A stretch of DNA of 26,960 nucleotides from a virus (IMGVR_UViG_3300049049_000052:1-26960); one strand, 5' to 3'. Positions 1,314-26,133 are shown, counted from the first letter of the stretch. The notes: generated by a model not told the origin, from the letters alone. Program-made: numbers and translations.

Positions 1314-1379
1314 GATAATAATAGTTTGAGTTAATACTTGTTTTCACATTCATTTTATGCGATGACTTATCGCCTGCAT

Positions 1380-1399: not shown

Positions 1400-1409
1400 A
1401 ATATTATTT

Positions 1410-1426
1410 AGTGCCTTTCGGCGGCT
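1410..1426 (-). promoter_or_regulatory. variant of the same structured motif (AG-CC-GCC-GAAA-GGC-A-CT)
   Basis: same AG-CC-stem-loop-stem-A-CT layout as the 20-bp repeat, with compensatory changes in the inner stem. Confidence 0.55.
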
Positions 1427-2253: not shown

Positions 2254-2384
2254 TTCTTAACTATTTTATTGCCTTCAACAATTTTTTTCCTGGCATCCTT
2301 AGACTTATTCAGGCTCTTCAGATCAACCTTATGCTTACACTCAGATTTGCAATCTTTATGATTACATTTTTTTTCTGCTGTCAT
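2250..2384 (-). CDS. small basic Cys/His-containing protein, 44 aa (not in the ORF track)
   Basis: MTAEKKCNHKDCKSECKHKVDLKSLNKSKDARKKIVEGNKIVKK; its TGA overlaps the protease ATG (ATGA coupling). Confidence 0.55.
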   Translation of the reverse strand: MTAEKKCNHKDCKSECKHKVDLKSLNKSKDARKKIVEGNKIVKK

Positions 2385-2450
2385 ATTGTCTACTTTTCCT
2401 ATAGATTTAATATACAATACTAAAATAAAGTTCTTTTATTCGCAAATATT

Positions 2451-3725
2451 TTATGTTTTTTCTGGCTCTGGATCAGGCTGGGTTTCAGGAACCATAATGA
2501 ATTGTGCCGCCTCCTGTGGATCAAATTCCCATTCGCTTACTAGAATCTTTATTGCAATTTCTACGGAGATGTTACTGGTTTTCACCTGAGCATTTAACCC
2601 AACGATAGCCTCAGTGATAGTTTTGGCCTTTTCTGCCCGGGTATTCTGTGCCTCTTGTAAACAGTCGATATTAGAAAGATCCAGGTAGATATCATATCCA
2701 AGATCTGCTTTTAATTCTTTGTTCTCAGTGATGAGCTTTGTGAATGGGATTACACAATCATTATAAAGTGCCTTGTTTGCCTCTTGAACGTTGGCGTACT
2801 TCTTATTATCAGGGTCATTAAATAAGCTTGAGTCAATCTGCAGAGCATTACAGATATCACGGACCTTTATCTTGTAACCATCCCATAAAGCCAGTTCCTT
2901 TGTAGTCCGGCCAATATTTTGCACTCTTAATCTGGCGGTGGAGGTTGCTACCCCGCCACTTTTACGCGCCCCCCTTAATCTTCTGTTCAGGGATTTATCC
3001 ATTCCATCCTGTTCGTCTTCGGTAATTGGAACATCCGAATCATTGGTGATAAGAACATCAACACCTTTGTTTTTCAACGTTGAAGTGTCAGCCGTATACA
3101 TTTCTTTAAGTGACTCTATAGGCATGAGCGCCGCCTGTAAAGGAGACAAGCCCATTCTGGTATTCCTTCGAGCAACATCAAATATCTTAATGAAGATCAT
3201 GCTGCTATTGTCAAGCATCACCCAGGATCCATCATCTTTCCAAAGTCTATATTTGAATTGCCCGTTCCCTTGCGGAAGTTCCTCCACATCAAGTGTATTA
3301 AGTACGGTGCGCTCATGGGGGAATCCAACGATTTCTTTTTTGTAAATTATAGCTGTGCCCGTAAGCAGGATCATCTGTAGGGCAAAATTGGTATCAAGGT
3401 CGTAGGTTTTAGATTTGTATGGCTTGCCGCCCCAGTAAGGAATAAAATTGATATTTCTTTGTGCGAGTATTATCTTGATGATCATCCCGAATACTGCAGG
3501 ATTATTGGAGTATCCTACTTCGACCAGGTTTCTTAGTGATCTACGGCCAAAGCTGTGTGAGCCAGACAAGAGACTATACATAAGGTTGTCTCCCGAGGCG
3601 TTTACATAGGTTTGTTCGCCATCGTACAAAACATCTGAATCATTGTTGCCCAATAGAAAAGATTTCACTACAGGGAACAGGCCGGGCCACTTTTTTTTAG
3701 GGGTTTCAGAGCGTTGTTTATCCAT
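2451..3725 (-). CDS. phage portal protein
   Basis: GLSPLQAA, ICNALQIDSSLFND-x-KYANVQEANKALY and CVIP motifs typical of HK97-like portals; directly follows TerL. Confidence 0.9.
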   Translation of the reverse strand: MDKQRSETPKKKWPGLFPVVKSFLLGNNDSDVLYDGEQTYVNASGDNLMYSLLSGSHSFGRRSLRNLVEVGYSNNPAVFGMIIKIILAQRNINFIPYWGGKPYKSKTYDLDTNFALQMILLTGTAIIYKKEIVGFPHERTVLNTLDVEELPQGNGQFKYRLWKDDGSWVMLDNSSMIFIKIFDVARRNTRMGLSPLQAALMPIESLKEMYTADTSTLKNKGVDVLITNDSDVPITEDEQDGMDKSLNRRLRGARKSGGVATSTARLRVQNIGRTTKELALWDGYKIKVRDICNALQIDSSLFNDPDNKKYANVQEANKALYNDCVIPFTKLITENKELKADLGYDIYLDLSNIDCLQEAQNTRAEKAKTITEAIVGLNAQVKTSNISVEIAIKILVSEWEFDPQEAAQFIMVPETQPDPEPEKT

Positions 3726-3743
3726 TTGCTATTGATTAATAGC

Positions 3744-3763
3744 GAGTGGAAGTATCCGGCTCA
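3744..3763 (-). repeat. 20-bp motif TGAGCCGGATACTTCCACTC, copy upstream of the portal gene
   Basis: exact match to 1380-1399; ends 18 nt before the portal ATG. Confidence 0.85.
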
Positions 3764-3824
3764 CAGGTATGTAATCGTAAATATAGAAATTAATTTTATA
3801 TTGTCCACTACCAATAATACGAAA

Positions 3825-5273
3825 CTAAACCTTCTGCCCCAATGTAAAATAAGAGCGCAACATAAACATGTCCATTAGGTCCGGCGATTGACTGCCGAGC
3901 ATAGTTTTCATCTCATCTTTACTAATTAAATGAATTTTTGAATCAGTGGTCATAGTTGCTTTCTTAATAGCTTTCCTCTCATACATAAATCGCTGCCTAA
4001 CTGTCATTTTATTATCATACATAGTATTTGCAACCTTATCTGAAATAGAATATTTTCCCGAGTTCACATCAACCCCGCTAATACTGTAACATTGAGTTTT
4101 AAGATTCACATAATTGTCTCGGCCAATACACTTGCTATTATTGACAAAAGGCAAACCTGCTGGGATGAATCCACCCAGAAAGGCACCTACTCCATCATTA
4201 TCAAAAGTTATTCGGTTATTCGGCACAGCATACTTATTTGCGAATTCCTTAATACCATCAAGCACCTGTTTACCGTTAGACTTAGCCATTATTAATATAT
4301 CGATCAGTTCAAAGCCATCCCATACACCTACAACAAACTTATCTGATCCGTTCATGGCAATGTCAGCTGTAATGTATTTCGTGCCTGTAGTGCTTGATTT
4401 CAGGCTCCCAAACATGGCGCTGAAACACACGGCATCGTACACATCGTTTTCGCTTTTGATATACTTCCAATTGCCATCTAAAAGCCTGAGCTTTGTTTCT
4501 TCGTCCTGTGAAACAAGATTCGAGACATACCCAGGATCTTTCTGCATCAATTTCTTATTATCATATACACTTCCATTAATGAACGTAAATGACTTTACAA
4601 AATCCTCAGCTTTTTGATTTTTGTTAACCAGGCCCTCAAGGAAGAACCATGATTTTTCTATCACCTCTTGCTTTGAATCTCCCCATATATAATCGGAACC
4701 TTTTTTAATAAAATATCTGACTATTCCAATCCTCTCGGGAATCGGGAAACCTGTTATCTGATCAATGTACCACTGTACTATTGTGGCAACCCAAGAATCA
4801 GGATCCGGATTACACGTGGCCCTTACATACGGCTTAACCCCACAAATAGACCTGTTACGAGACAATAGATAAAAAAATTGACCTTCACTGAAGTGTGTTA
4901 ATTCATCAAATCCAATGAAAGGTATTTGGGATCCCTGCCAGTTTAGTTTATCCTTTTCGTATTCCAGATGTGAGAATTTTATTTTATTCCCAAAATTAAA
5001 CTTCCATTCTAAACTTGATTCCTTCGGCTCTGCATTGACATGCGGATAAAGCTGAAGAGAAGTATCCCATAGCCCCCCTTCATTCCTTATCTGTGGTGTA
5101 GTGCGCCTGAAAATCACCCCTCCAAATCCTTTTACCTTAGTGATGTGCCTGAGTGGCTCTATCAGTAAAGCAAAGGTTTTACCTACACCCGCACCAGAAC
5201 CACCTATTACTATGTCCGCGGGAGAGCTTAGAAACTTCTCCTGAAATCCTTCCTGCGGCTTTATAATGTTCAT
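3825..5273 (-). CDS. terL: terminase large subunit
   Basis: Walker A GSGAGVGKT, Walker B FIGFDELTHF, ATCNP coupling motif, and nuclease acidic motifs TADIA, DNDGVG and SPDLMD. Confidence 0.95.
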   Translation of the reverse strand: MNIIKPQEGFQEKFLSSPADIVIGGSGAGVGKTFALLIEPLRHITKVKGFGGVIFRRTTPQIRNEGGLWDTSLQLYPHVNAEPKESSLEWKFNFGNKIKFSHLEYEKDKLNWQGSQIPFIGFDELTHFSEGQFFYLLSRNRSICGVKPYVRATCNPDPDSWVATIVQWYIDQITGFPIPERIGIVRYFIKKGSDYIWGDSKQEVIEKSWFFLEGLVNKNQKAEDFVKSFTFINGSVYDNKKLMQKDPGYVSNLVSQDEETKLRLLDGNWKYIKSENDVYDAVCFSAMFGSLKSSTTGTKYITADIAMNGSDKFVVGVWDGFELIDILIMAKSNGKQVLDGIKEFANKYAVPNNRITFDNDGVGAFLGGFIPAGLPFVNNSKCIGRDNYVNLKTQCYSISGVDVNSGKYSISDKVANTMYDNKMTVRQRFMYERKAIKKATMTTDSKIHLISKDEMKTMLGSQSPDLMDMFMLRSYFTLGQKV

Positions 5274-7333: not shown

Positions 7334-8242
7334 TTATTCTCTCTTATGCGTTAAATTTTCAAAGTATGGCTTAAAGGTCACTGTCACATTTGCGTTGACC
7401 GTTCCGACTACCCACTCAGGCTTATATCCGGCTGTTGGCACTACCCACCTGTTTACCGTTGGAGTAGGGGATAGCTTATTGTAATCGGTGAATTTCATTT
7501 TTCCGGACTGGATAAGGTCCACCTGCAGGAATCTGTGTATCTGCTGCGGCAACTGGTAAATATTCCATGTAAGCTCCTCAACCTGGCTGTCACCGATCCA
7601 AACATTTTCCCCGTTGGGGTATTTCACGAACTCCTCTGTAAGCTCTGAGGTATCAAAGCCGAACATTGAATTCGGGATCCTGATCTGATTAAACCAGTTT
7701 AAAATGCCGTAGTCTTCCACTTTCTCATCATTGCTTCTGCTTCCCAGGACTCCGGATCTGTTCCATTCTACACGCACGGTGCGGTCAGCACGGTCAGCGG
7801 TATATACCTGAAGATTGAATTCAAATGAATATTGATCTGCAAATGTGCCGATGGAACGTGTAGCGGAATTTCTTACCCTGTAAATCCCGGGACCGTGTTC
7901 ATCTAAAACAGCTGCCCAGTCAATCTGATAGCCGATTGCCTGCTCACCAAATTTGTTTGTGAAGAATCCATACTCATAAAAAGTCCCATAAGTATCATCG
8001 GTAAGTTCTCCCAAATCTTCCCTGTCCTTCTGAAGCCAGATTTTTACATCTGAAAAAAGATCATCAAAGAACCATATCACTGAATGCTTGTCATTAAATA
8101 AATCATTGGTTGGCGAAAGCTCAGCCAGAGCCGGAAGGTAAAAGCTGCAGCCGCTCGGATTAGGTCTGTCCTGAAGCGCGGATACAACGTCAGCGGTTGG
8201 CCGCAAGATATATATGGTTTCTTTTATTGCCTGTCCGTTCAT
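7334..8242 (-). CDS. hypothetical protein, possibly virion-associated (probable start MNGQ)
   Basis: about 300 aa, rich in aromatic and acidic residues. ATG at 8242 is preferred because the longer ORF start runs through the palindrome. The structural role is a guess. Confidence 0.6.
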   Translation of the reverse strand: MNGQAIKETIYILRPTADVVSALQDRPNPSGCSFYLPALAELSPTNDLFNDKHSVIWFFDDLFSDVKIWLQKDREDLGELTDDTYGTFYEYGFFTNKFGEQAIGYQIDWAAVLDEHGPGIYRVRNSATRSIGTFADQYSFEFNLQVYTADRADRTVRVEWNRSGVLGSRSNDEKVEDYGILNWFNQIRIPNSMFGFDTSELTEEFVKYPNGENVWIGDSQVEELTWNIYQLPQQIHRFLQVDLIQSGKMKFTDYNKLSPTPTVNRWVVPTAGYKPEWVVGTVNANVTVTFKPYFENLTHKRE

Positions 8243-8260
8243 ATTATAACACACTGATTT

Positions 8261-8297
8261 AGAACTACTTATGTTCCACGTGGAACACAATAGTTCT
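8261..8297. promoter_or_regulatory. parS-like perfect palindrome TGTTCCACGTGGAACA (8272-8287) within a 37-bp imperfect inverted repeat
   Basis: 16-bp perfect palindrome close to the bacterial parS consensus TGTTNCACGTGAAACA, flanked by AGAACTA/TAGTTCT arms, in intergenic DNA. Confidence 0.7.
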
Positions 8298-10804: not shown

Positions 10805-12010
10805 TTACATCATTTCTTTAAACATGAATGGCATTACAGAGCCGTCACTATAGAATTTATCCATTACCTTATCGGCAAGTGGCTCAGATCCTGTCCATCC
10901 ATCAGGCCATGTATTATTTTCGATCAGCTTATTTATAAAATCTATTTCCTCCTGGTTAATAAAATCGACAGTTGGTCTGTTAATCTTGATAGCTTTGTTG
11001 TTTACCCTGGATTGTATGTCTATAATTTTTTCTAAAAACATCTTCCTTGATTCAAGCCTTAAAGGCCCCATTCTCTGCTGATTTTTGGCAAAATTTCCAT
11101 CTTTTTTCTTCTGACCTCCAGGCATTCTTATCCGATGCTTTGGCTTTTTCATTTCACGGTAGATCTGTTTTAATTCAAGAAGTGGAGATAAATAAGCCCA
11201 GTCTTTCATTTTACATACTGTGATTAGCGCCTTGTCCTTACTTGCCAATGGGCATCCCTGGCAACCGGTTCTTGCGTTGATATCTTCAGCATCATCCCCA
11301 CCGTAGGCATCAGCAACCATTGTTGTGTGCCAGGCGCCATACTTTTGTGATGGAGCATATATTTTTAGCCAATCCCATACAAGGCACACTCTCCAATGAA
11401 TAATTGGGGCAAGGGTGCTGCACGAAGCTGAATCCATTCCTGTTTGATACCATCCCTGGCCGCACTCTGATCCATCTTTGCTGCAGCTCATTGATATCCT
11501 ACCATCCCTTATTGATGATTCCCCCTGACGAACACCGGTTATCATAAGTATCTTTTGCCCTATTTTTTTGTGGAGTTCTGCCAGAGCATCGATCATTGGA
11601 TCTACCTTTATATGACCTGTACACCATCTGAAGGTATTGCTAGGAGGCGGGACACCTCTCCCCAATATGTATACAAGGAATCTTTTTTCTATAGGAGCCA
11701 TCACTACGTTTACAGATATTCCCCTTTCCACCATCTGTTTTATCAAAGCTTGGGCCGATATCCACAGCGGCGCAATTTCTTGCCTTGTATCAGCATAAAA
11801 AATGGTTACGGATTTTGGGTTAGGTATCTGCCCTGTGGTAATTAACTGCAGGGTTAATGTTGCAACGGTGGTGCTATCCTTCCCGCCGCTCCATGCGATT
11901 GCCCAATGATCATGTCTTTTGCCATATTCATTAAGTGAATCAATGGTCAGCCCTATAGCTTCATCAATACTCATCCTACCTGTACCGAAAAGGAATAACT
12001 CATTTCTCAT
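10805..12010 (-). CDS. PAPS-reductase-family (DndC-like) PP-loop protein
   Basis: PP-loop AWSGGKDST, GVPPPSNTFRWCT, TGVRQGES..R, and Cys motif RTGCQGCP. Confidence 0.85.
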   Translation of the reverse strand: MRNELFLFGTGRMSIDEAIGLTIDSLNEYGKRHDHWAIAWSGGKDSTTVATLTLQLITTGQIPNPKSVTIFYADTRQEIAPLWISAQALIKQMVERGISVNVVMAPIEKRFLVYILGRGVPPPSNTFRWCTGHIKVDPMIDALAELHKKIGQKILMITGVRQGESSIRDGRISMSCSKDGSECGQGWYQTGMDSASCSTLAPIIHWRVCLVWDWLKIYAPSQKYGAWHTTMVADAYGGDDAEDINARTGCQGCPLASKDKALITVCKMKDWAYLSPLLELKQIYREMKKPKHRIRMPGGQKKKDGNFAKNQQRMGPLRLESRKMFLEKIIDIQSRVNNKAIKINRPTVDFINQEEIDFINKLIENNTWPDGWTGSEPLADKVMDKFYSDGSVMPFMFKEMM

Positions 12011-13912: not shown

Positions 13913-14124
13913 TATGCAGCTTTGCGTTTAAATTTTTGGTCAATTATTAAAATCTTTCTTTCGTATATCTTCATATCCACCCTTAGCCGGCTCTGCTTCT
14001 TTTCGATCTCCCGAATACATCTGCCATTATTCAAATGCTTGTTCATGGTTCTCTGTAGCTTTTCAATCTGTATCCTGAGACCATCAGCTCTCAGCTGGAA
14101 TAGGTCCCGTGCTGAACTAATCAT
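13912..14124 (-). CDS. small coiled-coil hypothetical protein
   Basis: 70 aa, overlapping both neighbours. Confidence 0.55.
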   Translation of the reverse strand: MISSARDLFQLRADGLRIQIEKLQRTMNKHLNNGRCIREIEKKQSRLRVDMKIYERKILIIDQKFKRKAA

Positions 14125-14933
14125 TTCCTTTTATCAATTGAATTGGCTGGGAACTCAACCTTGTTAAACATTTCACGCATCCGGCTTCTTACCCTGGTTC
14201 CATAAGATGATTCAATCTGCTCAGCACTAAGATTTGTTGATAAGTGAGTAACAACCTTTGTTTCATACCGGCTGAGAATAATATCAGCCATCACATTTGA
14301 TTCATTTCCGAAGTTCTTAACTGACACCTCTGTGCCTAAATCATCAAAGCATACTGATAAATAATCCTGGCCATACTTCTTTCCTTCATGCCCGGCCCTG
14401 ATCAGGTTGTAATACTTCTCAATCGCCTCATATCCCTTCTTTGCGTACTCAGATGATACATGCCGGCACGGAACCAGGTGAAAGCTCTGATGGGGGTTTG
14501 TAGCGAACAATTTAAATAAGGTTGTCTTTCCACATCCAACATTACCGTGAAGCAGAATCCCTTTTTTCAGGCTGTATTCTTCCCCCATGCTTTCAAACTC
14601 CGGACTACCAGTGAAATAATGGCAAAGTGTTTTTGCGATTACAAGCTCGTCTGGCGTAAATACCAGATCAATACTTTGTTCCATTGCCCGAACCTTGATA
14701 ATCTCAAACATCTGATCTGGGGTAAGTTTGATAACCTGCCTTGGCTGACGTAATTTTTCAGCATAGGCAAGCTCCCGCAGGTGTGCAAGTTTCCTTTCAC
14801 GGGCATGGAATACAGCCTCGTTAAGTTCTTCAGGAGTTAAAACATCATCCTTATAGTTTTCCAAACCCGGAAGAACCGGAAGTTTGAAGGGTTGAGGTAA
14901 GATCTTTTCTAACTGTGTTTGAATCTTTTCCAT
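14121..14933 (-). CDS. DnaC/IstB-like AAA+ helicase loader
   Basis: Walker A GNVGCGKT, Walker B FDDLGTE, STNL, YGTRVRSRMREM; follows the initiator. Confidence 0.85.
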   Translation of the reverse strand: MEKIQTQLEKILPQPFKLPVLPGLENYKDDVLTPEELNEAVFHARERKLAHLRELAYAEKLRQPRQVIKLTPDQMFEIIKVRAMEQSIDLVFTPDELVIAKTLCHYFTGSPEFESMGEEYSLKKGILLHGNVGCGKTTLFKLFATNPHQSFHLVPCRHVSSEYAKKGYEAIEKYYNLIRAGHEGKKYGQDYLSVCFDDLGTEVSVKNFGNESNVMADIILSRYETKVVTHLSTNLSAEQIESSYGTRVRSRMREMFNKVEFPANSIDKRK

Positions 14934-15585
14934 TGCTATTAAATTTTAATTCGTTCGCGGCCCAGGTGACCAATCTTTTTTTTATGTCGAAAACAAGCTC
15001 ATGCTCGAATCTCATTTTTTTTGACCTTGGGCTTTTTTCAGCCCAGTAGTCAATAAATTTTTTTAATCTTTCAGGAGGGTGGTCAATCGCCAGATTGACT
15101 TCTGCGATGAAATCCTTTTCCCTTTCTTCTATAGTTTTATTTACTTTACTCTCCTTTACTATAGTTTCCTTTACTTTACTTTGTGTACTTTCGGATTCCG
15201 AAACTGTTTTTTCTGCTGGTTTCTGCTTCTGAAACTCTTCTCTTTGTTTGTTTCGCTTGCCTATAAGACCACTGAAACGCCTGATCATGTTCTCGCTGAA
15301 GATTTCCCCTTCCAGATTGATAAGCAGTTCTATCTTCTGAAAGTATTCTAAAATCTCTTTAAGCTTATCTGTCTCAACCTCAAAATCGCCGGCCCATAAT
15401 TCAAGATTCATGTCATTGTATTTCATGGTAAATCCATCCGACTTTGACAACTTCTCAAGCATCATATTCCAGATCGAATACCCTTCATGCTTGAACTTTC
15501 TCCGGACGGCTTTTATCTTCTCGTCATTCCTCATATCATTATCATGAGAGAAGTAATCAGCGTTATTCTTTTTGGGCCTTGCCAT
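14851..15585 (-). CDS. phage replication initiator (DUF4373/Lin1244-like N-terminus)
   Basis: MARPKK..ADYFSHD...DEKI..VRRKF..EGY N-terminus, KVKE repeat linker and C-terminal FIDYWAE domain; paired with the DnaC-like gene. Confidence 0.78.
   Translation of the reverse strand: MARPKKNNADYFSHDNDMRNDEKIKAVRRKFKHEGYSIWNMMLEKLSKSDGFTMKYNDMNLELWAGDFEVETDKLKEILEYFQKIELLINLEGEIFSENMIRRFSGLIGKRNKQREEFQKQKPAEKTVSESESTQSKVKETIVKESKVNKTIEEREKDFIAEVNLAIDHPPERLKKFIDYWAEKSPRSKKMRFEHELVFDIKKRLVTWAANELKFNSNGKDSNTVRKDLTSTLQTSGSSGFGKL
15126..15185. repeat. imperfect 15-bp-period TTTAC repeats inside the initiator gene
   Basis: CTTCTATAGTTTTAT / TTACTTTACTCTCCT / TTACTATAGTTTCCT / TTACTTTACTTTGTG. Confidence 0.6.
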
Positions 15586-15588
15586 TCT

Positions 15589-16122
15589 TTAATTGATATC
15601 AAGTTCTAACTGTGGATTTGGAGCATGCTTCCCATTAATGTATGCCTGAACTTCCTGCTCACATAGATCTACGGCTATGTAAAGCTCACGCAGGAAATGA
15701 TATCCGCTCTGCTCCGTCTCCGGATCAAACTTTGTGAATGGTGTGGTAAGGTTCAGGACCTTTTTACCGCGGAGCATCTTCCGGCCAATGATTGTAACTC
15801 CGGAGTGTTCATCATTACCCCCCAGGGAGAAACCAGTAACCCTGAACTTATCAAAGCGAGGATCCTGGTATATCTCTTCGGTATCGAAATGGTACCGATC
15901 CACATTCTCATCATCCACAATCTCGGCCAACATGACCAGGTGAGGTATAAGCCGGTTGAAAGCTTTTTTCAGATCTTCATGAATGATCTTCCGGGATTTG
16001 GAAGCTATCTCCGTGGAAACAGTATCATCACCGTCAGCCTCCGTTAAAAGGTATTCTGTTTCAAGAAAAGTATCGTCTGCGATCTTTGCCTTTTTAATGG
16101 TTAATGTTAGGTTCTCATTCAT
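15589..16122 (-). CDS. conserved phage hypothetical protein
   Basis: 177 aa, IHEDL...VTGFS...GVTIIG...LNLTTP; function unknown. Confidence 0.75.
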   Translation of the reverse strand: MNENLTLTIKKAKIADDTFLETEYLLTEADGDDTVSTEIASKSRKIIHEDLKKAFNRLIPHLVMLAEIVDDENVDRYHFDTEEIYQDPRFDKFRVTGFSLGGNDEHSGVTIIGRKMLRGKKVLNLTTPFTKFDPETEQSGYHFLRELYIAVDLCEQEVQAYINGKHAPNPQLELDIN

Positions 16123-16126
16123 AGGT

Positions 16127-17041
16127 TTATACTATTTGGTAAAATTTATTAGTCTGATCTATTGCTTTAAAAATCTGAAAGGCTACTTGAGGAACTATTG
16201 CGTTACCTCCAGCCTCTAAGCTGCTTTTATTCCACTCTGTTTTTGAAATGGTTGTAGTGTCCAGTCGGGAGGAAATCCCATCATTTCCATCACGAACAGG
16301 GGAGACAGTCGGGAATTCTGACCAGTTATTGAATTGATTGTATCCCCTAAAGAGTTGTTCGCCGATCTCCCTTTCATCGCTAGAGTATCTGGATGCCTTC
16401 CTCCTTTGTATTCTCTTCTCGTTGGTGTTGGTGTTGGTAGCATGCCCATTACTGCTAATTGATGTAAGTTCACTCCAAATCTTTCCCCCTTCTTCGACTT
16501 GTTTACTACTTTGCCATTCTCTATTTGTGGCAGCCTGTTGCCCATCGATTTCACTACTGTAGGCAACAAACCAAATTCTATCTCTTCGATGCGGAGCATT
16601 GACGGCACAAGCTGGAAGTAGTACCGGTTGTACTTTATACCCTTCATTTTCCAAGTCAGTACACACTTCGTTGAAAACCAATCCCCCCCCCCAATTAATG
16701 AGGCCAGGAACATTTTCTCCCACAATCCAAACCGGTTGAATTTCTCTAATTGTTCTAAGCATCTCCGGCCAGAGGTGTCTTTCATCTTCTTTGCCCTTTC
16801 TTTTGCCAGCAAGAGAATATGGCTGGCATGGGAATCCTCCGGTAAGTATGTCAATCTGTCCTCTGTGAATAGTGAAATCTGTTTTGGTAATGTCTGCATA
16901 ACTTATAGCCTTTGGCCAGTAGTGTTTTAATATTTTTTGCCCGAACTCATTCCATTCACAATGAAAAACATTCTCCCAACCCATCCATTCCGCTGCGAGG
17001 TCAAAACCTCCAATCCCAGAGAATAAGCTTCCGTGTGTCAT
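16127..17041 (-). CDS. C5 cytosine DNA methyltransferase, alpha chain (lacks motif IX)
   Basis: motif I SLFSGIGG, IV GGFPCQ, VI ENV, VIII PHRRDRIW, X GNAIVPQVA. Confidence 0.92.
   Translation of the reverse strand: MTHGSLFSGIGGFDLAAEWMGWENVFHCEWNEFGQKILKHYWPKAISYADITKTDFTIHRGQIDILTGGFPCQPYSLAGKRKGKEDERHLWPEMLRTIREIQPVWIVGENVPGLINWGGGLVFNEVCTDLENEGYKVQPVLLPACAVNAPHRRDRIWFVAYSSEIDGQQAATNREWQSSKQVEEGGKIWSELTSISSNGHATNTNTNEKRIQRRKASRYSSDEREIGEQLFRGYNQFNNWSEFPTVSPVRDGNDGISSRLDTTTISKTEWNKSSLEAGGNAIVPQVAFQIFKAIDQTNKFYQIV
16216..16899 (-). CDS. nested alternate-frame ORF, putative methyltransferase beta chain
   Basis: 227-codon ORF wholly inside the MTase gene, with LLPT and MLPTP segments, ending in RLSPLFVMEMMGFPPDWT (motif IX-like). 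Confidence 0.75.
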   Translation of the reverse strand: MQTLPKQISLFTEDRLTYLPEDSHASHILLLAKERAKKMKDTSGRRCLEQLEKFNRFGLWEKMFLASLIGGGDWFSTKCVLTWKMKGIKYNRYYFQLVPSMLRIEEIEFGLLPTVVKSMGNRLPQIENGKVVNKSKKGERFGVNLHQLAVMGMLPTPTPTRREYKGGRHPDTLAMKGRSANNSLGDTINSITGQNSRLSPLFVMEMMGFPPDWTLQPFQKQSGIKAA

Positions 17042-18033
17042 ATCAGCCTTAATTGTGAATCATCCTTAAATCTTTCCTTACACTGCTGAAGGTTGATTAC
17101 AGCTTGCTTAAAATATGTCTCCTTTAGCTCTACTCCGACTGCTCTACGGCCAAGAGAAACAGGGCTGTAAACCTCTGATCCCACGCCCATATAAGGAGTA
17201 AAGACAACATCATTCGGATTACTCCATAGTTCAACACACCGATCAATTACATCCAGCTGCAACGGGTGAACATGCTTCTCATCATCCTCATCTTTGCTGT
17301 CTCTGAAAGGAAGGACGTTCTCTAATCTGATATCATCCCAGACCGAAGAGGCGTAACGCTGCCAGATGATGTGAGAAAGCTTGTTTGTTTTTGGGTCCGC
17401 CCAACCTTTAAATTTTTTCTTAAGGCTTTCAAAATCTCCATAGGTCTCTTGCATGGCTGGTAGCATAGGTGTTTCACCAAAGTATTCAGTAAGCCCTACC
17501 GGATGGGTAACTGGCACTTCTCTTTCGCCGCGCTTCTTAAAAATGAGTAGGTAGTCCGGTGATGCCGTAAAGCATTTGGAGCTGTCTTCAACTATTAATT
17601 TGTGCATGAGCGATCTAACCATTGTTCTCATTCTCACCTTCAATGGCTCCTTCCAGATGGTGATTCGATTCTTGTAATCAAATCCATGCTTGGCATGTAT
17701 TTTTATGATCTCATGCGGGAAGTCAAATAGGATCTCGGTTTTAGAATCCATTGTATCAGTGCAGTGGACCGCCGTAATTGTTCCCGGCTTTTGTATCCTG
17801 GCAATCTCAGAAACAGTGAATTCATATTGTGCCAGAAATTGCTCGAGCGTTTCGCAATTACTTAGGTCATTGACAGAGCTTGAATAGTTGTATAAAGCAC
17901 CACCATTCTTTTTAGCAAAAGGAGGTGAATAAACGCTAAGGTCAATGCTGTTGTCTGGCATTGATGGCATCACATACATATTGTCGCTGTGATACATTGC
18001 GTACCTATCGGTAATAACTTGGTCCTTAATCAT
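17038..18033 (-). CDS. amino (N4-C/N6-A) DNA methyltransferase, beta-class motif order
   Basis: catalytic YSPPF precedes HVHPLQ and the SAM-binding VFTPYMGVGS...GVELK. Confidence 0.88.
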   Translation of the reverse strand: MIKDQVITDRYAMYHSDNMYVMPSMPDNSIDLSVYSPPFAKKNGGALYNYSSSVNDLSNCETLEQFLAQYEFTVSEIARIQKPGTITAVHCTDTMDSKTEILFDFPHEIIKIHAKHGFDYKNRITIWKEPLKVRMRTMVRSLMHKLIVEDSSKCFTASPDYLLIFKKRGEREVPVTHPVGLTEYFGETPMLPAMQETYGDFESLKKKFKGWADPKTNKLSHIIWQRYASSVWDDIRLENVLPFRDSKDEDDEKHVHPLQLDVIDRCVELWSNPNDVVFTPYMGVGSEVYSPVSLGRRAVGVELKETYFKQAVINLQQCKERFKDDSQLRLI

Positions 18034-19418
18034 AAAAAAGATGGTAGTGTTATAGGTTTATCGAACTCTTTTGTTTTGATTTCGAATGATTGATTTATGT
18101 TGCTGTTTAATTTATCAAAGAGTTCATTTGCCTTATGAGCTTTAGCTACCAAACTATCCATCACTCTTTTCTGACCGTCTGAGAATACCAGATCCGCGAT
18201 CACGGTTCTCTTTTGTCCGAATCGCCAGAACCTCCTTATGGCTTGGTAATACTGCTCATAACTGAATGTTGGAAAGAACACTGTATGGTTGCAGTGTTGC
18301 CAGTTCAGACCGAATGCTGTGATTTTTGGCTTCGTGATGAGTTTTTTAATTTCGCCTCTTGAGAATGCTAGAAGCATTTCCTCCTTCTTATCAAGGTTCA
18401 GGCTTCCTTTAATTTGATAAGCATCTTTATCAATCTGCTGAATGAGATCCCCTTCATTATTTAGATTGCACCAATAAACAGTGCCTTCGTGCTGACTTGC
18501 TAAGTCCACAGCCTTCTCACATCTTTTCTGAATTGTTAATTTATTTTCCTCTCTCACTTCAGCCATCCGTCTGGCTATTTCATTGAATAACATGACCTGT
18601 CCATTGATCACCATATTCTTATCATTCTTGACAGAATTATAATTGACCTGAAGCTCTGGTAATATGTGCTTGCTGTCATCAAAATTCAGATCGGACGGCT
18701 TTCTCATTGATATGCTCCAGCCGGAAACCCATTTAAAGAAAGCTTCTTTGGCATGGCCTTTTAGAACCCACTCCGTACCAATGTTCATTGGAGAAACAGT
18801 ATCCTCGTTATTCTTAAAGAACTTCCCGAGCATATCTGTATATCCCATATACCCCAAGGCCTCTGAGCTGGTCCCTAATTCAATGAAATCATTCGGTGAA
18901 GGTGTTGCTGTAAAAAGAAATCTATACTTTACTTTCTTCAGGAAACTTGTTATTTGCTGCTTGATAGCGCCGTCAAAGTTTTTCAGAATTGAACTTTCAT
19001 CCAGGATAACACAGTCGAAGTCTGAAGGATTGAAATGGGACAGCCTTTCATAGTTGCATACCACAATCTTATAATTGAACCGGCCATCTTTTGAATATCC
19101 CACATCATCAATCTGAAATTTTTCAGCCTCATCAATTACTTGGAAGGCAACTGCCAGGGGTGTAATTATCAGAACCCTTTTATTGGTTGCCAGCAAATAG
19201 TTCTTAGCTACCGTTAATTCGATTAAAGTTTTACCCAGGCCCGTATCAATGAAGCCAGCACACCTGCCTTTTTCTATTGCATGACTAGCAACATACTTCT
19301 GAAAATCAAACATTCTATCAGGTAGATAATCTGCTTTTATTCCATAATTATTAGAAGTATGCCTCTTCTGCTCAAGAAACCGTTTATAGGCTTGGTCTGA
19401 TTCAAATGTGTGTGTCAT
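18030..19418 (-). CDS. SF2 (SNF2-like) helicase/ATPase
   Basis: DTGLGKT, ILDESS, TATP, GLNWQ, QAIRRFWRFGQ; probable ATG at 19418, just after the upstream stop (ORF track extends to 19442). Confidence 0.9.
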   Translation of the reverse strand: MTHTFESDQAYKRFLEQKRHTSNNYGIKADYLPDRMFDFQKYVASHAIEKGRCAGFIDTGLGKTLIELTVAKNYLLATNKRVLIITPLAVAFQVIDEAEKFQIDDVGYSKDGRFNYKIVVCNYERLSHFNPSDFDCVILDESSILKNFDGAIKQQITSFLKKVKYRFLFTATPSPNDFIELGTSSEALGYMGYTDMLGKFFKNNEDTVSPMNIGTEWVLKGHAKEAFFKWVSGWSISMRKPSDLNFDDSKHILPELQVNYNSVKNDKNMVINGQVMLFNEIARRMAEVREENKLTIQKRCEKAVDLASQHEGTVYWCNLNNEGDLIQQIDKDAYQIKGSLNLDKKEEMLLAFSRGEIKKLITKPKITAFGLNWQHCNHTVFFPTFSYEQYYQAIRRFWRFGQKRTVIADLVFSDGQKRVMDSLVAKAHKANELFDKLNSNINQSFEIKTKEFDKPITLPSFL

Positions 19419-19419: not shown

Positions 19420-19722
19420 TTATCTAAATTCAAATCGTTCATTAATTTCTTCTATGGTTGCACTGAACGGAAAACTTTCCTTTGGTACCTGCTCAATAGC
19501 ATTCATTAAATACCCTGACCCAGTAAACAATACCCGCATTTCTACTCCCATATTTATTTGGAGGTGTAGACATTTGCCGTTTCCCTTATCAGGATATTTC
19601 GATGGTGCGATGATATAATCATGCACTGAAACCTCTTTGTTGATCACTTTTTTAATCGAAATCTTTTCACCCTGTAATGATTTTACAGATGACTTTATTC
19701 CAAAATCTTTAAACTGTTTCAT
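19420..19722 (-). CDS. 100-aa protein coupled to the RT; candidate DGR accessory factor
   Basis: start overlaps the RT stop by 14 nt; beta-strand-like pattern, unlike the helical Avd. Confidence 0.7.
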   Translation of the reverse strand: MKQFKDFGIKSSVKSLQGEKISIKKVINKEVSVHDYIIAPSKYPDKGNGKCLHLQINMGVEMRVLFTGSGYLMNAIEQVPKESFPFSATIEEINERFEFR

Positions 19723-20668
19723 TCAATAATTTTTTCAATAAATGTTTACTGTTACAATGCTTTGCCCAGCCTGTATAAGAGGCTATTGATTCACGATTCT
19801 TTCTTCTGGAAAGCATCCTGGCGAAATTCTTTTTGATGGTCTTTCTAAGCCGCGTATGCGTGTGATAGAAGCAGTATCCTACAAAGTCAATGCTCCGAGC
19901 CTGCACTGGAAAAATCTGATAGTTATCCTTTACCTTGAGATTTAATTCATTATTCAGATACTCTGTGATCTCAGAAAGGACCTGATGCAGGTACGGTTTA
20001 TTATCTGAGAGTATTACCAGATCATCGGCATAGCGGAAGTAATACTTTACACCCTTTTGTTCTTTAATCCAATGATCAAAATAGGTGAGGTAGAAATTCG
20101 CAAAGTATTGGCTCAGATAATTACCGATCGGCAAACCTTCCGCGCTGTCAATAATTCCATCCAAAAGCCAGAGAAGATCCTGATCTTTAATCTTCCGGCG
20201 TAAAAGCTGTTTTAGAATTGCATGGTCAATGTTCGGATAGAACTTCTTAATGTCCAGCTTCAGACAGTATTGGGTACCGGCAACATCTTTCAATGCCTTC
20301 CGGACTGCATAAGCTGCGGCATGTATGCCTTTGCCTTTAATGCAGCTGTAAGTATCAGCAGTGAATGTGGAGATGAAAATAGGCTCCATGATATTCATTA
20401 CCGCATGATGTGTGATCCGATCTGGAAAGTATGGGAGCCTGAATATTACTCTCTCCTTTGGTTCGTAAATCGTAAATGTGGTATAGGCAGATGTCTTATA
20501 CGTCTTATTCTTCAGCATCAGGTGAAGCGCCCAGATGTTGGCATCCTGATCCCTTTCATGGAGCTGGACACCATACTGGCCGAGCTTTCCCTTCCTTGCC
20601 TTCTGATCAGCCAGGTAAAGGTTATCAATGCTGTAGATTTGTTCGTATAAGTTTTTTAATCGTTTCAT
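19709..20668 (-). CDS. DGR-type reverse transcriptase
   Basis: LKLDIKKFYPNI, GLPIGNYLSQYFAN (DGR-type GxxxSQ), YFRYADD, IDFVGY. About 319 aa from ATG 20668 (ORF track extends to 20737). No maturase or endonuclease domain; adjacent to a TR/VR set. Confidence 0.95.
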   Translation of the reverse strand: MKRLKNLYEQIYSIDNLYLADQKARKGKLGQYGVQLHERDQDANIWALHLMLKNKTYKTSAYTTFTIYEPKERVIFRLPYFPDRITHHAVMNIMEPIFISTFTADTYSCIKGKGIHAAAYAVRKALKDVAGTQYCLKLDIKKFYPNIDHAILKQLLRRKIKDQDLLWLLDGIIDSAEGLPIGNYLSQYFANFYLTYFDHWIKEQKGVKYYFRYADDLVILSDNKPYLHQVLSEITEYLNNELNLKVKDNYQIFPVQARSIDFVGYCFYHTHTRLRKTIKKNFARMLSRRKNRESIASYTGWAKHCNSKHLLKKLLNETV

Positions 20669-20730
20669 GCCTTTGCTTATTCCGGTCGCGTTCCCATAGG
20701 TACCAGCGCCCTTTAATAAAAAGTTGTTTT

Positions 20731-20870
20731 TTGCCATGTTGGCAAGGTTTACACTGCAACATCATTGTGCATAGGTGCGAGCTGACATTCGAATTCGTGT
20801 TCGAGTTATCGTAGTCGTTGTTCGAAAAGCTGGAACTAGCCTAACAACCGCTCACGCAGCATACAACCTT
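20731..20870 (-). ncRNA. predicted DGR template RNA (TR enclosed by a long-range stem, with a 3' hairpin)
   Basis: 20856-20870 pairs with 20744-20757 (14 bp including 2 G-U and 1 bulge); hairpin TTGCCA-ACA-TGGCAA at 20731-20745. Confidence 0.65.
20769..20840 (-). repeat. DGR template repeat (TR)
   Basis: GCTAGTTCCAGCTTTTCGAACAACGACTACGATAACTCGAACACGAATTCGAATGTCAGCTCGCACCTATGC; 72 nt, 21 A, rich in AAC/AAT, intergenic. Confidence 0.95.
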
Positions 20871-20877
20871 CACTGAT

Positions 20878-21246
20878 CTATTTTGAAAGGAGAAAATATT
20901 CCTTGTATAGAGATTTAAATTGCTTGCCGGCGTACACAGCTAAATCATACGACTTAAAGCAAAGGCGCGAGCCGACACCCGAAGACGTGAACGAGTAAGC
21001 GTAGTCGTGGTACGAAAAGCCGGAACCAGCCTTGTCCATCCAAAACCATGGATAATACTTATATTCATTGCTGTCTTTCCAGTTCGGTTTCCAGCCGGCA
21101 TTAAGAGCACGGGCAATGATCACCAGTTTATAATGAGCTATGATTGCTTTGCGATCCTTTGCTGGTATTCCGGTAACTATTGGTAATTTCTTTGGATCGA
21201 GTTTGAGGGCCTTACAGGCATCGTTAAAAGTTTTGATCTTATTCAT
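20878..21246 (-). CDS. DGR target protein 1 (122 aa)
   Basis: contains VR1 encoding AGSGFSYHDYAYSFTSSGVGSRLC; paralog of 21256-21729. Confidence 0.92.
   Translation of the reverse strand: MNKIKTFNDACKALKLDPKKLPIVTGIPAKDRKAIIAHYKLVIIARALNAGWKPNWKDSNEYKYYPWFWMDKAGSGFSYHDYAYSFTSSGVGSRLCFKSYDLAVYAGKQFKSLYKEYFLLSK
20959..21030 (-). repeat. variable repeat VR1
   Basis: 15 mismatches to the TR, all at TR adenines; 0 of 51 non-A positions differ. Confidence 0.95.
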
Positions 21247-21255
21247 GGTTATAGG

Positions 21256-21729
21256 TTATAGGGTGAAAGCATCTTTATAAATTGATAGAAACTGTTTACC
21301 AGCATATCTTGCCAGCTCTTCAGACTTAAAGCAAAGGCGCGAGCCGACACCCGAAGTCGTGTACGAGCCACCGTAGACGTCGTTCGAAAAGCCGGAACCA
21401 GCCCTCATGTCAAACCACGGATAGTATTTGTACTGGCTTGAGTTATTCCAATCTGGAACCCATCCTTCATTAAGGGCGCGGGCGATTATGAATAACTTTG
21501 CATAAGCAATGATCGCGGCAGCATCTTTTGAATTCGTGCTTGGTAATTGATCAGATGGATTTAAACCCAGTACCTTACAGGCATCTTCATAGGTTTTCAC
21601 CCGCTCCATAATGTTCTTTGGCTTAAATGTCTCAGGCCCGAACAGGTTACTGAGTACTTTTTGTACATCTGAGCATCCTTCATTGAAGGCTTTCAGAGCA
21701 TTGTCTTTACTGATGTTTAAGGTTTCCAT
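21256..21729 (-). CDS. DGR target protein 2 (157 aa)
   Basis: contains VR2 encoding AGSGFSNDVYGGSYTTSGVGSRLC; about 40-aa N-terminal extension relative to target 1. Confidence 0.92.
   Translation of the reverse strand: METLNISKDNALKAFNEGCSDVQKVLSNLFGPETFKPKNIMERVKTYEDACKVLGLNPSDQLPSTNSKDAAAIIAYAKLFIIARALNEGWVPDWNNSSQYKYYPWFDMRAGSGFSNDVYGGSYTTSGVGSRLCFKSEELARYAGKQFLSIYKDAFTL
21331..21402 (-). repeat. variable repeat VR2
   Basis: 14 mismatches to the TR, all at TR adenines; 0 of 51 non-A positions differ. Confidence 0.95.
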
Positions 21730-22784: not shown

Positions 22785-23128
22785 AGCTTATAATCATTTG
22801 AGTGTTCCTTCCACCACTTCTCAGCTACAGACTTAAGAATCCTGGCGCGCTTTCCTCTGCCGCCATCAAATGGAACAGGGTTCTTTTTCTGCCTGATCAT
22901 TTTATCCAGCGTGGTCTGACTTACTTTGAAGTATTTCATAAAATCGCTCTTCGTGAAGTATTCATCAGATTCAGGCTTAGGTATCTCCTTAAGCATCTTT
23001 GCCCGCTCTTCACTCATGAGAAGCTGAAATTCCCCTACAGTTAAATCAATTAGCCTGGTTGATGGTGTCATAATTAAGCTGCTATTAATTTTTTCTTGAA
23101 TAAGTTTTTGTTCATCCATTCTCTGCAT
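22781..23128 (-). CDS. excisionase/MerR-like HTH DNA-binding protein (true start probably near 23071)
   Basis: LIDLTVGEF N-terminus; YFTKSDFMKYFKVSQTTLDKMIRQ HTH followed by a wing. Confidence 0.7.
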   Translation of the reverse strand: MQRMDEQKLIQEKINSSLIMTPSTRLIDLTVGEFQLLMSEERAKMLKEIPKPESDEYFTKSDFMKYFKVSQTTLDKMIRQKKNPVPFDGGRGKRARILKSVAEKWWKEHSNDYKL

Positions 23129-23862
23129 TCGATTACCCTGTCTTTCATTTTTTGGATCTTGGTATTATTCCTTAAAACATCAATCTCATAAAGCCTTTCA
23201 GCCATTGGAACATCATATTTCCAGTCCTTGCAATGCAATTCAAAATATGGGTGATGGCTTAGAAAAAGGGGCATGTCATAGATGTGATTTTTCTCAATCT
23301 CAATACAAGCATCAATGTATTCCTGTGGCTCTGTATCTATTACTCCCATCTTCCAGGCCAGCTTCTTTTTTTCATCCATAATCAAACTCGCCGGAGTATT
23401 TACAAGACAGTAAGCAACTGTGTGAACATTAGCTCCGGTCAGATCCAGATATGTCAAACCTTGGTATTCATAGCCAGCATCAACAGTGTCGCAGATTGAA
23501 GGCATCGTTGTCCAATCCCAGCAACTTTTTGTATCAATTGTCTTTTCTGCCTTTCTGATTTCTTCTCCTTTAAATAAATCCACTTCTCCGGTAAAAAAAT
23601 CATTCTCAAGCCTGATATCGTTTTTCTTGAACACCTCTTTTTTAAGGCGACTGTAGAGGGTTATAGAATCCTCCTCGACAGCGTTCCCCTTCTCGGTATA
23701 TTTATTCCCCTTGTCAGTTCTTCTTTGCCAGGTTAGCTCCCTGTAGATTTGAACCAACTTTCTTTTACAGGTAAGCGAATCCTCAACACTCCAACCTTTG
23801 GCAACACCAGTCATTATATCGCCCATCGAAGAGGCTCTGAATAAAATTTTATCTGCGTTCAT
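23074..23862 (-). CDS. YqaJ/lambda-exonuclease-like recombination nuclease
   Basis: RASS, KGNAVE, TGEVD, IDTKS and YQGLTY follow the PD-(D/E)xK lambda-exo pattern. Confidence 0.8.
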   Translation of the reverse strand: MNADKILFRASSMGDIMTGVAKGWSVEDSLTCKRKLVQIYRELTWQRRTDKGNKYTEKGNAVEEDSITLYSRLKKEVFKKNDIRLENDFFTGEVDLFKGEEIRKAEKTIDTKSCWDWTTMPSICDTVDAGYEYQGLTYLDLTGANVHTVAYCLVNTPASLIMDEKKKLAWKMGVIDTEPQEYIDACIEIEKNHIYDMPLFLSHHPYFELHCKDWKYDVPMAERLYEIDVLRNNTKIQKMKDRVIECREWMNKNLFKKKLIAA

Positions 23863-23881
23863 GTTGTAAGATTTTAATAGT

Positions 23882-25222
23882 TTACTTCTTTTCGATTAAT
23901 TCATACCTGATATCTCCTGCGTCATAGTCTGCTCTTTCGATCAGCAATTGCAAATCATTGTCGCTGGCCCAATTTTCAATTTCAGCCAATGTGTTTTTGT
24001 CTAAGAAGGAAGCATCAAAGTGTAGAGTCTCTACTTCTCCAATATTCATTGAAGCAATCCGGAGAGCAGCACAGTACAGTTTAGAGGAGCTTATTTGTGA
24101 TTTGTCCAAAGGAAACCCATCCACTGTAATTCCATCCAACGCGAACGCTATCCCTGCTGGCATCTTAGCCGACTTAATCAGGTTCTCCCTTTCTTCCTCA
24201 ATGGCCTTTACCTTTATATCCGCATCTTTCGCCTCGATAGCTGCAGCTTCAGTACTTCTTTTGTATTCGATATAATCCGCGTAGGCTTTAGCTTTTGTAT
24301 TCGTTTCTGACGCCTCAAGGATTTGTTTATCTATCACCTGAAGCTCTTTGTCATCTGGCATTTCAGGTACATATTCCGGTTCCTTTGGATAAAGCTCTGA
24401 TGCTACTTTGTCTTTCAGGATGGCTTTGCCTTTTGTCTTAACAAAATTCTCTAGCTCTTCACTATTAAATCCATCAGCCTTCAATACTCCCATCGCATCA
24501 TAGCATCTATTATATGCCAACCTGTTTTCTGTTTGCTGAGAATTAAATTCCGAAACCTCTTTATTGATTTCTTCCTTTTCTTTATTCCATTTATCACGGA
24601 GGAGATCATTGGCAGCCTTATTCTTCTTATAAAGATCATTCAGCCTGGTTCTCTCAACTTCTTTTTTTGCTTGTAGCTCGGTTAAATCAACCGTATCCAC
24701 TTTCTCGCATTCCAGCATTTGGGAAAGCTTTACATGAAATCTTTCAGCCTCTCTGTTTTTTTCTGTCCTGTCATCATATGCCAGCTTATATCGATTGTCG
24801 ATTTCTGTAAAGTCGATACCGACAATCTTTTGCAACTGCTTTGACTGATCCTTTGGGGAACTGTTAAGAAACTTGTCAATGTCAAAAGATGGAGGGAAAA
24901 ACCTTGCGACAATTTCTTTTGTCACCTTAGTCTTATAGCCCTCTTTGGTCAGGAATATTAATTTGTCCACTCCTTCAATGTCGAATTCCCATACAAACTT
25001 TTCTCCGGTTGTGAGTTCTATTGTTCCGCTTCCTTCCTTTTTTCCATTGGTTACAATTAACTCAGGCTTTATCCCTCTGATCCGGTCAATTACACCGCGC
25101 AAAAATGTGGACTTGCCTTTATTATTACCTCCGGTTAAGATGGCAGTGCATCCTTTGAAATCAATTTCTAAATCGCTGATGGCTTTGAAATTGGTAACTG
25201 ATATTTTTTGAATTTTGCTCAT
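23882..25222 (-). CDS. SMC/Rad50-like AAA ATPase with coiled coil
   Basis: KIQKISVTNFKAI, Walker A GGNNKGKST, long coiled coil, degenerate signature ISSS and Walker-B-like LHFDASFLD. Confidence 0.82.
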   Translation of the reverse strand: MSKIQKISVTNFKAISDLEIDFKGCTAILTGGNNKGKSTFLRGVIDRIRGIKPELIVTNGKKEGSGTIELTTGEKFVWEFDIEGVDKLIFLTKEGYKTKVTKEIVARFFPPSFDIDKFLNSSPKDQSKQLQKIVGIDFTEIDNRYKLAYDDRTEKNREAERFHVKLSQMLECEKVDTVDLTELQAKKEVERTRLNDLYKKNKAANDLLRDKWNKEKEEINKEVSEFNSQQTENRLAYNRCYDAMGVLKADGFNSEELENFVKTKGKAILKDKVASELYPKEPEYVPEMPDDKELQVIDKQILEASETNTKAKAYADYIEYKRSTEAAAIEAKDADIKVKAIEEERENLIKSAKMPAGIAFALDGITVDGFPLDKSQISSSKLYCAALRIASMNIGEVETLHFDASFLDKNTLAEIENWASDNDLQLLIERADYDAGDIRYELIEKK

Positions 25223-26133
25223 GATTGTTTGTTTTTAGATTTCATCTTAATTATTTCTCTCTGAGCATTAAAAAGCGCTATGTCAATATTTGGGTTAGCC
25301 TCCTGAAGTGATGTTAAATCTTCCTCAGTCAGGCAGTCGGCAATCATGAACTGGATTCTCTCAGCTTCTTTATTTATCTCAGGTGCTTTTGCTTTCCCGC
25401 TTTTGAAGGCTAATTCTACAGTAGTGTCACCATCCTTTATGGCTTGCCCAGCTCCGATCAGTACAACAAGATCATCCCCGGTTATATGGTCAATCGCGGC
25501 TTTTCCAACAGCGGATAATATTTCAGCTTCAGTAAGGTTGTAGGTGTTTTTAAGACCGTCAAAAACAGCCTTCCTTCTTTGTAAAAGCTTAGTCGCATCC
25601 GAAATGTCACCGGTAATAACTTTCTTAGATTCATTGTAAGCCTTATCCACAATTGATTTTGGTATGACCGACAGGATTGCATTTCTCAAGGCGATAGCGT
25701 TACCGGCGTTGCCTGTAACAGTGATCATATCATCTGTCATTCTTCCGTTCTTAGTCATAATGGAGCGTCTCACTTCAACCTTTATGGCAATATTATTTTC
25801 AAGGTCAAAAGCGATAGCCTGAGAAGTGACTTGCTTTGCATCAATAGCGATAACCTTTGTTTCAATTCTCATATTACCCCAGCACTGAGCGAGTATTTTA
25901 GCAAGGTGAACACTTGGCCCTGTGATTGCTTTTCCTCCGCGTGGAACTGAATATGTGCAGGTAGTGGCTGTCTCCCTGTCCATGGTAGCAATAGCAATTG
26001 CATTTTCAGTAGCTCTTTTAATATTTCTTGGGTAAGCTTTTGCCGTTGCAACCTGGCCATCAATCAATGCTTTATCTTGCTGATAGATTGTTTGCAGGTC
26101 TAAATTTTCGATACTGATATTTTCATCTGTCAT
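25219..26133 (-). CDS. conserved phage protein, possible ssDNA-annealing protein by context
   Basis: QVATAKAYPRN...YSVPRGGKAITGPSVHLA...WGNM; next to the ATPase and exonuclease; function inferred only. Confidence 0.6.
   Translation of the reverse strand: MTDENISIENLDLQTIYQQDKALIDGQVATAKAYPRNIKRATENAIAIATMDRETATTCTYSVPRGGKAITGPSVHLAKILAQCWGNMRIETKVIAIDAKQVTSQAIAFDLENNIAIKVEVRRSIMTKNGRMTDDMITVTGNAGNAIALRNAILSVIPKSIVDKAYNESKKVITGDISDATKLLQRRKAVFDGLKNTYNLTEAEILSAVGKAAIDHITGDDLVVLIGAGQAIKDGDTTVELAFKSGKAKAPEINKEAERIQFMIADCLTEEDLTSLQEANPNIDIALFNAQREIIKMKSKNKQS

Follow-up and report, generated by a model that had tools for sequence, protein, structure and literature searches.

The window (the whole stretch of DNA analysed, 26,960 nucleotides) is a 27-kb piece of a tailed phage and carries a genuine diversity-generating retroelement (DGR). 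The element lacks Avd, and its two targets are small paralogous proteins which, on balance, are likely to be variable intracellular binders employed in phage–host conflict. To our knowledge, phage DGRs are understood almost solely as tail-fibre switchers. The cassette comprises genes for a long target (157 aa) and a short target (122 aa), a template repeat (TR), a reverse transcriptase (RT) and a 100-aa accessory gene, in that order.

Genome organisation

The genes of the window are located on the (−) strand. Genes for capsid, protease, portal and terminase occupy positions 30–5273 (−); TerL ends at 5273, which agrees with the initial annotation in placing the cassette about 14 kb from the head genes. 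Replication, methylase and helicase genes are found at ~14100–19400 (−) and recombination genes at 23000–26100 (−). Intergenic gaps do not exceed 21 nt across the region from 26851 to 14121, with the 140-nt TR gap as the sole exception. A scan of the window yielded one TAnnTTTG motif, at 26902, which we take to be the Bacteroidota promoter consensus; scans for sigma-70 promoters and terminators gave results at chance level. Two RNA runs contained a few short contigs over the cassette, which do not amount to evidence of expression. The cassette is indeed co-oriented with recombination, helicase and methyltransferase genes, as had been pointed out, but co-orientation alone fails to separate early from late genes here, because the head genes share the same strand. 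The window is the only sequence of this phage at hand and the tail module lies outside it; a remote tail target may exist.

A PAPS-reductase/DndC-like gene (10805–12010 (−); PADLOC DndC, E 1.6e-33) is located downstream of the DGR and, together with genes of a C5 methyltransferase (16127–17041 (−)) and an N6/N4 methyltransferase (17038–18033 (−)), constitutes a DNA-modification set. A 227-aa ORF starting with ATG (16216–16899 (−)) is entirely contained in the C5 methyltransferase gene, on the same strand but in a different frame. A 318-aa ORF (7334–8290 (−)), matching phrog_12180 (unknown), lies between the replication module and the head module, surrounded by small early-type genes.

Template and variable repeats

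The TR (20769–20841 (−)) is 73 nt long and contains 21 adenines and 52 other positions; the 72 nt and 51 non-adenine positions of the initial annotation required correction. VR1 (20959–21031 (−)) encodes residues 73–96 of the short target and VR2 (21331–21403 (−)) residues 110–133 of the long target, both in frame inside protein-coding genes. Recomputation reproduced the 15 and 14 mismatches to the TR, all of which fall on TR adenines (15/15 and 14/14; hypergeometric p 3.7e-11 for VR1 and 3.1e-10 for VR2). The two VRs differ from each other at eight sites, all TR adenines. The 29 mismatches do not represent 29 separate mutations, since VR1 and VR2 agree in their base at nine positions and the differences at the final three adenines are fixed family-wide. 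No third VR was found in the window, where the next best TR match has 26 non-adenine mismatches.

The same pattern extends to relatives. Across 97 loci, the 175 distinct TR/VR pairs show mismatches at 2107 of 3182 TR adenine sites vs 52 of 6268 non-adenine sites; no TR was found in four loci, and a single VR was left out because its non-adenine mismatches exceeded three. At the positions of the final three TR adenines, the VRs have G (153/159), G (164/166) and T (132/138), the third site being synonymous; judging from these counts, the three differences are fixed, not diversified, across the family. In VR1 they fall in the last 15 nt, and they appear to resemble IMH/IMH*. A stem-loop directly 3′ of the VR was unsupported in 168 sequences (mean z −0.44 vs synonymous recoding; 9% of sequences below −2). 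The variable core consists of 10 codons, six of them AAC/AAT, and could in theory provide ~2.9e9 protein variants per target. Of 1030 residues found at TR codons starting with AA, the most frequent are Tyr (169), Asp (129) and Gly (112). Part of the Tyr/Asp bias stems from the RT itself, according to PMC12875486, and for this reason the bias is weak evidence of binding.

Extra targets with adenine-only mismatches are located 1.5–9 kb upstream or downstream of the TR in loci L085/L106, L101, L112, L114 and L122.

Reverse transcriptase and accessory protein

The RT gene (19709–20737 (−)) is an uninterrupted ORF with GNYLSQ and YADD motifs that matches phrog_1423 (E 1e-128), which bears out the earlier description of an intact DGR-type RT adjoining the repeats. 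Translation probably begins at the second Met, at 20665, to give 318 aa, because many RT ORFs of relatives are 316–320 aa long. RTs of relatives that adjoin TRs are 59–77% identical to it, and one of them is assigned to clade 1 in the data of Roux 2021 (PMC8144416). The TR–RT spacer contains a short hairpin (20731–20745 (−)) with four consensus pairs, three of which have two-sided changes among 41 sequences. By analogy with BPP-1, as described in PMC12875486, this hairpin is likely to be part of an RNA element recruiting the RT.

In locus L072, a 345-aa ORF (L072:6587–7624) about 2 kb upstream of the cassette matches phrog_2825 ('polymerase'). This family is also matched weakly by the DGR RT; the ORF possibly encodes a second reverse transcriptase.

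No family match to Avd was obtained in the cassette or the flanking ORFs. The 100-aa accessory gene (19420–19722 (−)) overlaps the RT stop codon and encodes a protein with a predicted OB fold. It is found 3′ of the RT in 97 of 98 loci with room for it and in none of 28 loci without an RT, as detected with a profile built from those same loci's genes. The accessory domain is fused to the RT in one 414-aa ORF (L122:17076–18320), and its profile matches the C-terminus of the BT-TP2 RT and the last segment of the LoVEphage RT (E 7e-12 and 2e-13). The predicted model (pLDDT 90.7) is a small beta barrel, the best structural matches of which are OB folds: a RuvBL2 fragment (Z 6.5, rmsd 3.3, 69 residues aligned), followed by SSBs at Z 5.1–5.9; these scores are modest, and a Foldseek search with the model returned nothing significant. 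The Atlas ties the gene to RT fusions and to a cluster of which 44% of the members have Phi29_Phage_SSB. The accessory protein is a putative DGR helper.

Target proteins

The long target (21256–21729 (−)) consists of an N-terminal extension of about 40 aa and a domain shared with the short target; it belongs to phrog_11581 and the PC_00007 family. The short target (20878–21246 (−)) is predicted to form a scaffold of four helices, with the VR placed in a loop that is modelled at low confidence. The sizes of 157 and 122 aa are as first reported, and so is the stretch of about 25 codons after each VR, counted here as 26 in the short and 24 in the long target. Neither protein has a TM-like segment (peak 19-residue hydropathy 1.11 and 1.28), again as previously noted.

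All candidates of similar length (819/819) were homologous to the short target, and a profile search with it identified 4608 representatives at the 50% identity level (E up to 0.001). The comparison covered 54 viral and 76 genome loci; several are near-identical, so the counts that follow are not independent. The host is presumably a member of Bacteroidota or a close relative, because nearly all titles of the genome loci refer to such organisms. With the window included, 103 of 131 loci have an RT, and 87 of these 103 contain two tandem targets. The order long–short occurs in 72 of 102 RT loci, and 91 of 102 start with the long form (classes assigned by a crude start-codon rule).

When the extension and the VR are removed, the nearest neighbour of the remaining core belongs to its own class in 121 of 124 proteins and is its own partner in none. 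On the tree, the long/short label changes six times, vs a mean of 41.8 in 500 shuffles. A recent tandem duplication was rejected on account of these class-wise neighbours and few label changes; the tree and distances indicate that the long form and the short form each make up an old subfamily. Natural two-domain fusions (n = 29) include 14 long–short, nine long–long, five short–short and one short–long protein. The long–short fusions lend mild support to a joint role of the two forms. The two old subfamilies in long–short order and the 14 long–short fusions of 29 also underlie a more specific but doubtful reading, in which the long and short forms would be two chains of one intracellular antibody-like binder, each with its own separately diversified loop on a helical fold that resembles no solved DGR target, so that a single template would give a combinatorial two-loop site against host defence proteins, and the DGR would use an SSB-like OB-fold helper in place of Avd; against it stand the long–long and short–short fusions (also 14 of 29) and the existence of single distal targets.

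The model of the short target has a mean pLDDT of 83.9 and four helices, with the VR at pLDDT 47–61. A Foldseek search of this model, in which the VR is poorly modelled, against solved structures gave nothing clear (best E 1.8); the best VIA match has Z 3.9, rmsd 3.8 and 74 aligned residues, and no CLec is listed. The structure prediction proposed in the initial annotation has thus yielded a helical model but no clear match among solved folds, CLec included. A missing solved match is no proof of a new fold, and the model neither demonstrates nor excludes a lectin fold. Uncharacterised phage proteins do match the short-target model, several of them from crAss-like phages. Searches of Pfam, NCBIfam and PADLOC yielded no family match for either target, and profiles of the targets gave only weak, compositional matches to solved structures. 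Long fusions with a response regulator, DUF285 or Lcl_C were discarded as clues to function; they are single cases and look like frameshift or assembly joins.

In four inspected homologs (P0291, P0297, P0299 and P0307) the reading frame appears to shift within the VR or immediately behind it, and the protein continues into the following gene. About 40 similar homologs are 312–319 aa long; all of these may be DGR-made indel alleles or assembly errors. One element is represented by three targets in L011 and by different two-target subsets in L009 and L012, which may reflect repeat recombination or assembly collapse.

Arrays contain up to five targets (five in tandem in L102, four in L105), and 28 of 131 target loci are RT-free. 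In L075, L076, L121 and L126, targets and a TR are followed by at least 9 kb of RT-free DNA, as are the four targets of L113, where no TR was found. Such arrays seem to be cassettes that have lost the RT and kept the targets. Five genomes that carry target arrays lacking an RT were searched for one elsewhere, with no positive control, and none was found.

Genomic neighbourhood and isolated phages

The neighbourhood was surveyed in 30 loci picked for long flanks, with up to five ORFs of at least 100 aa per side (297 ORFs). By manual tally, 29 of the 30 loci have a named early-type neighbour, that is, a transposase, primase, DnaB, RecT/Erf, SSB, methylase, ParB, integrase, regulator or nucleotide enzyme; in the exception, L007, the neighbours are all unknowns or convergent structural genes. 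No flanking ORF of the 297 matched a tail-fibre or baseplate family (E 1e-8). The non-tail, early-region placement proposed at the outset therefore holds across the family. Co-oriented structural genes occur within five ORFs in five of the 30 loci (L022, L035, L046, L097 and L108), and the position of a gene predicts imperfectly whether its product belongs to the virion. The cassette is portable between Mu-like and lambda-like phages and inserts in early regions.

Eleven phage records contain a homolog of the target, at 31–37% identity. Those of LoVEphage, Versailles and BI-TP1 sit among recombination, replication and methylase genes, including RecT and DnaC. In LoVEphage, Versailles and BT-TP2, a TR beside the tail gene matches both the VR of the tail gene and a distal VR of the PC_00007 family; the mismatches of the distal VR are at adenines in 19/19, 14/14 and 14/14 cases, respectively. 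A comparison of the target profile with the C-termini of the three tail proteins aligns 27 columns, which correspond to the VR only (probability 67.5%), and outside the VR no similarity of the targets to those tail fibres was found. The target family thus combines a tail-fibre-type VR with another scaffold, and it serves as a remote second target or, as in the window, has its own cassette. Because of the homology between target and tail-fibre VRs, and because one TR can supply both, hitch-hiking on a surface-binding module is possible.

Variation of the VRs

Contigs were examined from eight of 24 listed runs, all 24 of which are soil or rhizosphere metagenomes; two of the eight are marked as possible sources of the window. 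No clear VR allele was seen in the contigs of the eight runs: among the contigs listed, VR1 is unchanged in X1, X2, X4, X6 and X22, and VR2 in X1, X2, X4, X5 and X6. A 230-nt contig from X4 (depth 3.6) has nine differences over VR1, the three displayed ones at TR adenines; it was rejected as a VR1 allele and read as a related cassette, since its TR is joined at another spacing. Locus L001 is identical to the window over 6449 nt. A short-motif scan retrieved L139, also identical, as the only viral contig, and nine metagenome loci without similarity to the window.

Close relatives do differ. Loci L032, L042, L070 and L098 have a common TR; where their RT DNA is 96–99% identical, the VRs have 8–13 differences, all at adenines. 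Copies with identical RT DNA also agree in their VRs, the one exception being an ambiguous array of three targets. Diversification is therefore observed between strains and not within the population of the window. Of the VR variation that the initial annotation expected, the adenine-only differences between close relatives are present and a clear allele in the contigs of the eight runs is not. Arms-race turnover is not seen for the window element, given these contigs and the identity of L001.

It is possible, though hardly probable, that the DGR of the window is now silent, intact but not diversifying, with its VRs as relics; such a state is compatible with any role of the targets. The contigs without a clear allele and the identical L001 and L139 would fit it, but the RT, TR, spacer hairpin and accessory gene are intact and neither VR has a non-adenine mismatch. 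Moreover, contigs drop rare variants, the runs perhaps stem from one campaign, and Roux 2021 (PMC8144416) describes slower turnover for non-structural targets.

Possible function of the targets

The early gene run, the early-type neighbours in 29/30 loci and the 0/297 tail matches all count for an intracellular binder, as do the absence of a hydrophobic segment in the targets and the low share of PC_00007 members predicted to be structural (1.6%, according to Roux 2021, PMC8144416); the adenine-only VR differences between close relatives count as past DGR activity. By inference from BPP-1, the RT would make errors at adenines when it copies the RNA of the TR, and each VR would then be replaced by the resulting cDNA, with the OB-fold protein as a putative single-strand-binding helper instead of Avd. 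The helical scaffold would display a Tyr/Asp/Gly-rich variable loop, and this loop may bind a fast-changing host protein, for example a defence component. The long and short forms are retained together, probably for distinct or joint roles. A useful allele, once found, would appear to stay fixed in the population.

Three other roles of the targets can be weighed against phage–host conflict. It seems unlikely that they are prophage-expressed sensors or blockers of competing-phage proteins, rather than of host proteins, acting in superinfection exclusion or lysogen defence. Many carriers are temperate, with integrase, repressor or Mu-type transposase neighbours, arrays reach five targets, and cellular DGRs are proposed to diversify antigen sensors (PMC10907252); however, no effector domain is fused or adjacent, PADLOC matches neither target, and the cassette is placed within a lytic early gene run, co-oriented with it and not as a separate unit. 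The targets are also quite unlikely to be ejected proteins or minor parts of the virion with a binding site on the cell surface or envelope, in which case the DGR would still serve host recognition. The 27-column alignment with tail-fibre C-termini and the single TR serving both kinds of target in three isolated phages speak for such proteins, and Roux 2021 (PMC8144416) leaves an uncharacterised structural role open. The early-module position in 29/30 loci and in isolated phages, the presence in Mu-like and lambda-like phages alike, the lack of tail-fibre similarity outside the VR and the length of 122–157 aa without a fibre shaft speak against them. Finally, the targets might tune the phage's own programme as adaptors or regulators of host transcription, proteolysis or replication across Bacteroidota, with no defence component, which would suit their early position, the persistence of homologs without an RT in 28/131 loci, the arrays followed by kilobases of RT-free DNA and the structural relatives in crAss-like phages, but is quite improbable because conserved core host machinery would presumably rarely need 1e9 variants.

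The ligand of the target family would reveal what Bacteroidota phages must recognise anew within the host cell, and it could lead to defence systems that are still undescribed. As a soluble scaffold of 122 aa that has a natural hypervariable loop, the short target is a simple system for DGR research and application, and an RT that works with an OB-fold helper in place of Avd would likewise make a simple DGR system.

Comparison with known systems

The first target of locus L045 is 41% identical to the long target described here, and L045 stands, under the same genome id, in the table of Roux 2021 (PMC8144416) with a PC_00007 target; on this similarity the targets of the window are assigned to PC_00007. 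In the data of Roux 2021 (PMC8144416), PC_00007 is a 'Phage_other' family of DGR clade 1, non-structural or unknown, viral and with FCB hosts, and the target table contains at least 1694 rows of it. The VR is positioned at about 0.75 of the protein in PC_00007, and the VR midpoints here are at 0.77 and 0.69. The passages of Roux 2021 (PMC8144416) on PC_00007 give no fold, long and short subfamilies, accessory gene or function; otherwise the systems are of the same kind. No function is given for the family in passages of Wu 2018 (PMC5758913), 10.1101/2024.11.15.621889, PMC8143477, PMC10743442 and PMC12875486, and no functional study of the target family or of an OB-fold DGR helper was found in the literature, most subscription papers aside.

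In Quimbyvirus, Benler 2021 (PMC8008677) described a distal target that is non-structural and has methylases and a tRNA ligase as neighbours, and proposed a role in phage–host conflict; four more gut prophages with a distal non-structural target, and the same proposal, are given in PMC12629997. The Quimbyvirus distal target, which lies among methylase and nuclease genes, is non-structural like the targets of the window, and the link between them is a matching neighbourhood, not sequence. In the Quimbyvirus type, a single TR is used for a tail fibre as well as for one remote gene, whereas the window has an early-region cassette with a tandem pair. Benler 2021 (PMC8008677) also terms the target a C-type lectin, while the short-target model here has no lectin match.

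The accessory gene resembles PAG1 of Wu 2018 (PMC5758913), which is also ~100–120 aa and located beside a Lineage 3 RT; FT(G/N)S and FP motifs with the same spacing, compared by eye only, are found in both. PAG1 lies upstream of the TR, however, and the accessory gene here downstream of the RT. Wu 2018 (PMC5758913) found PAG1 in three DGRs, termed it tenuous, and described Lineage 3 DGRs as having no avd. The reference DGR FP929032.1 names the RT cluster that contains L045.

The window shares with BPP-1 (mtd-avd-TR-brt) the adenine-specific TR/VR differences, an AAC-rich template, an RT, a structured TR–RT spacer and fixed differences at the 3′ end. Unlike BPP-1, it has no Avd and no stem-loop signal after the VR, the VR is internal, and the targets are two, small, not tail fibres and outside the tail module. 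The target family was already catalogued as PC_00007 and a conflict role is in print (PMC8008677, PMC12629997); the window contributes one more clean example of a catalogued class, not its function. New here are the long and short subfamilies in kept order, the predicted helical fold, the OB-fold gene and the fixed last three adenines.
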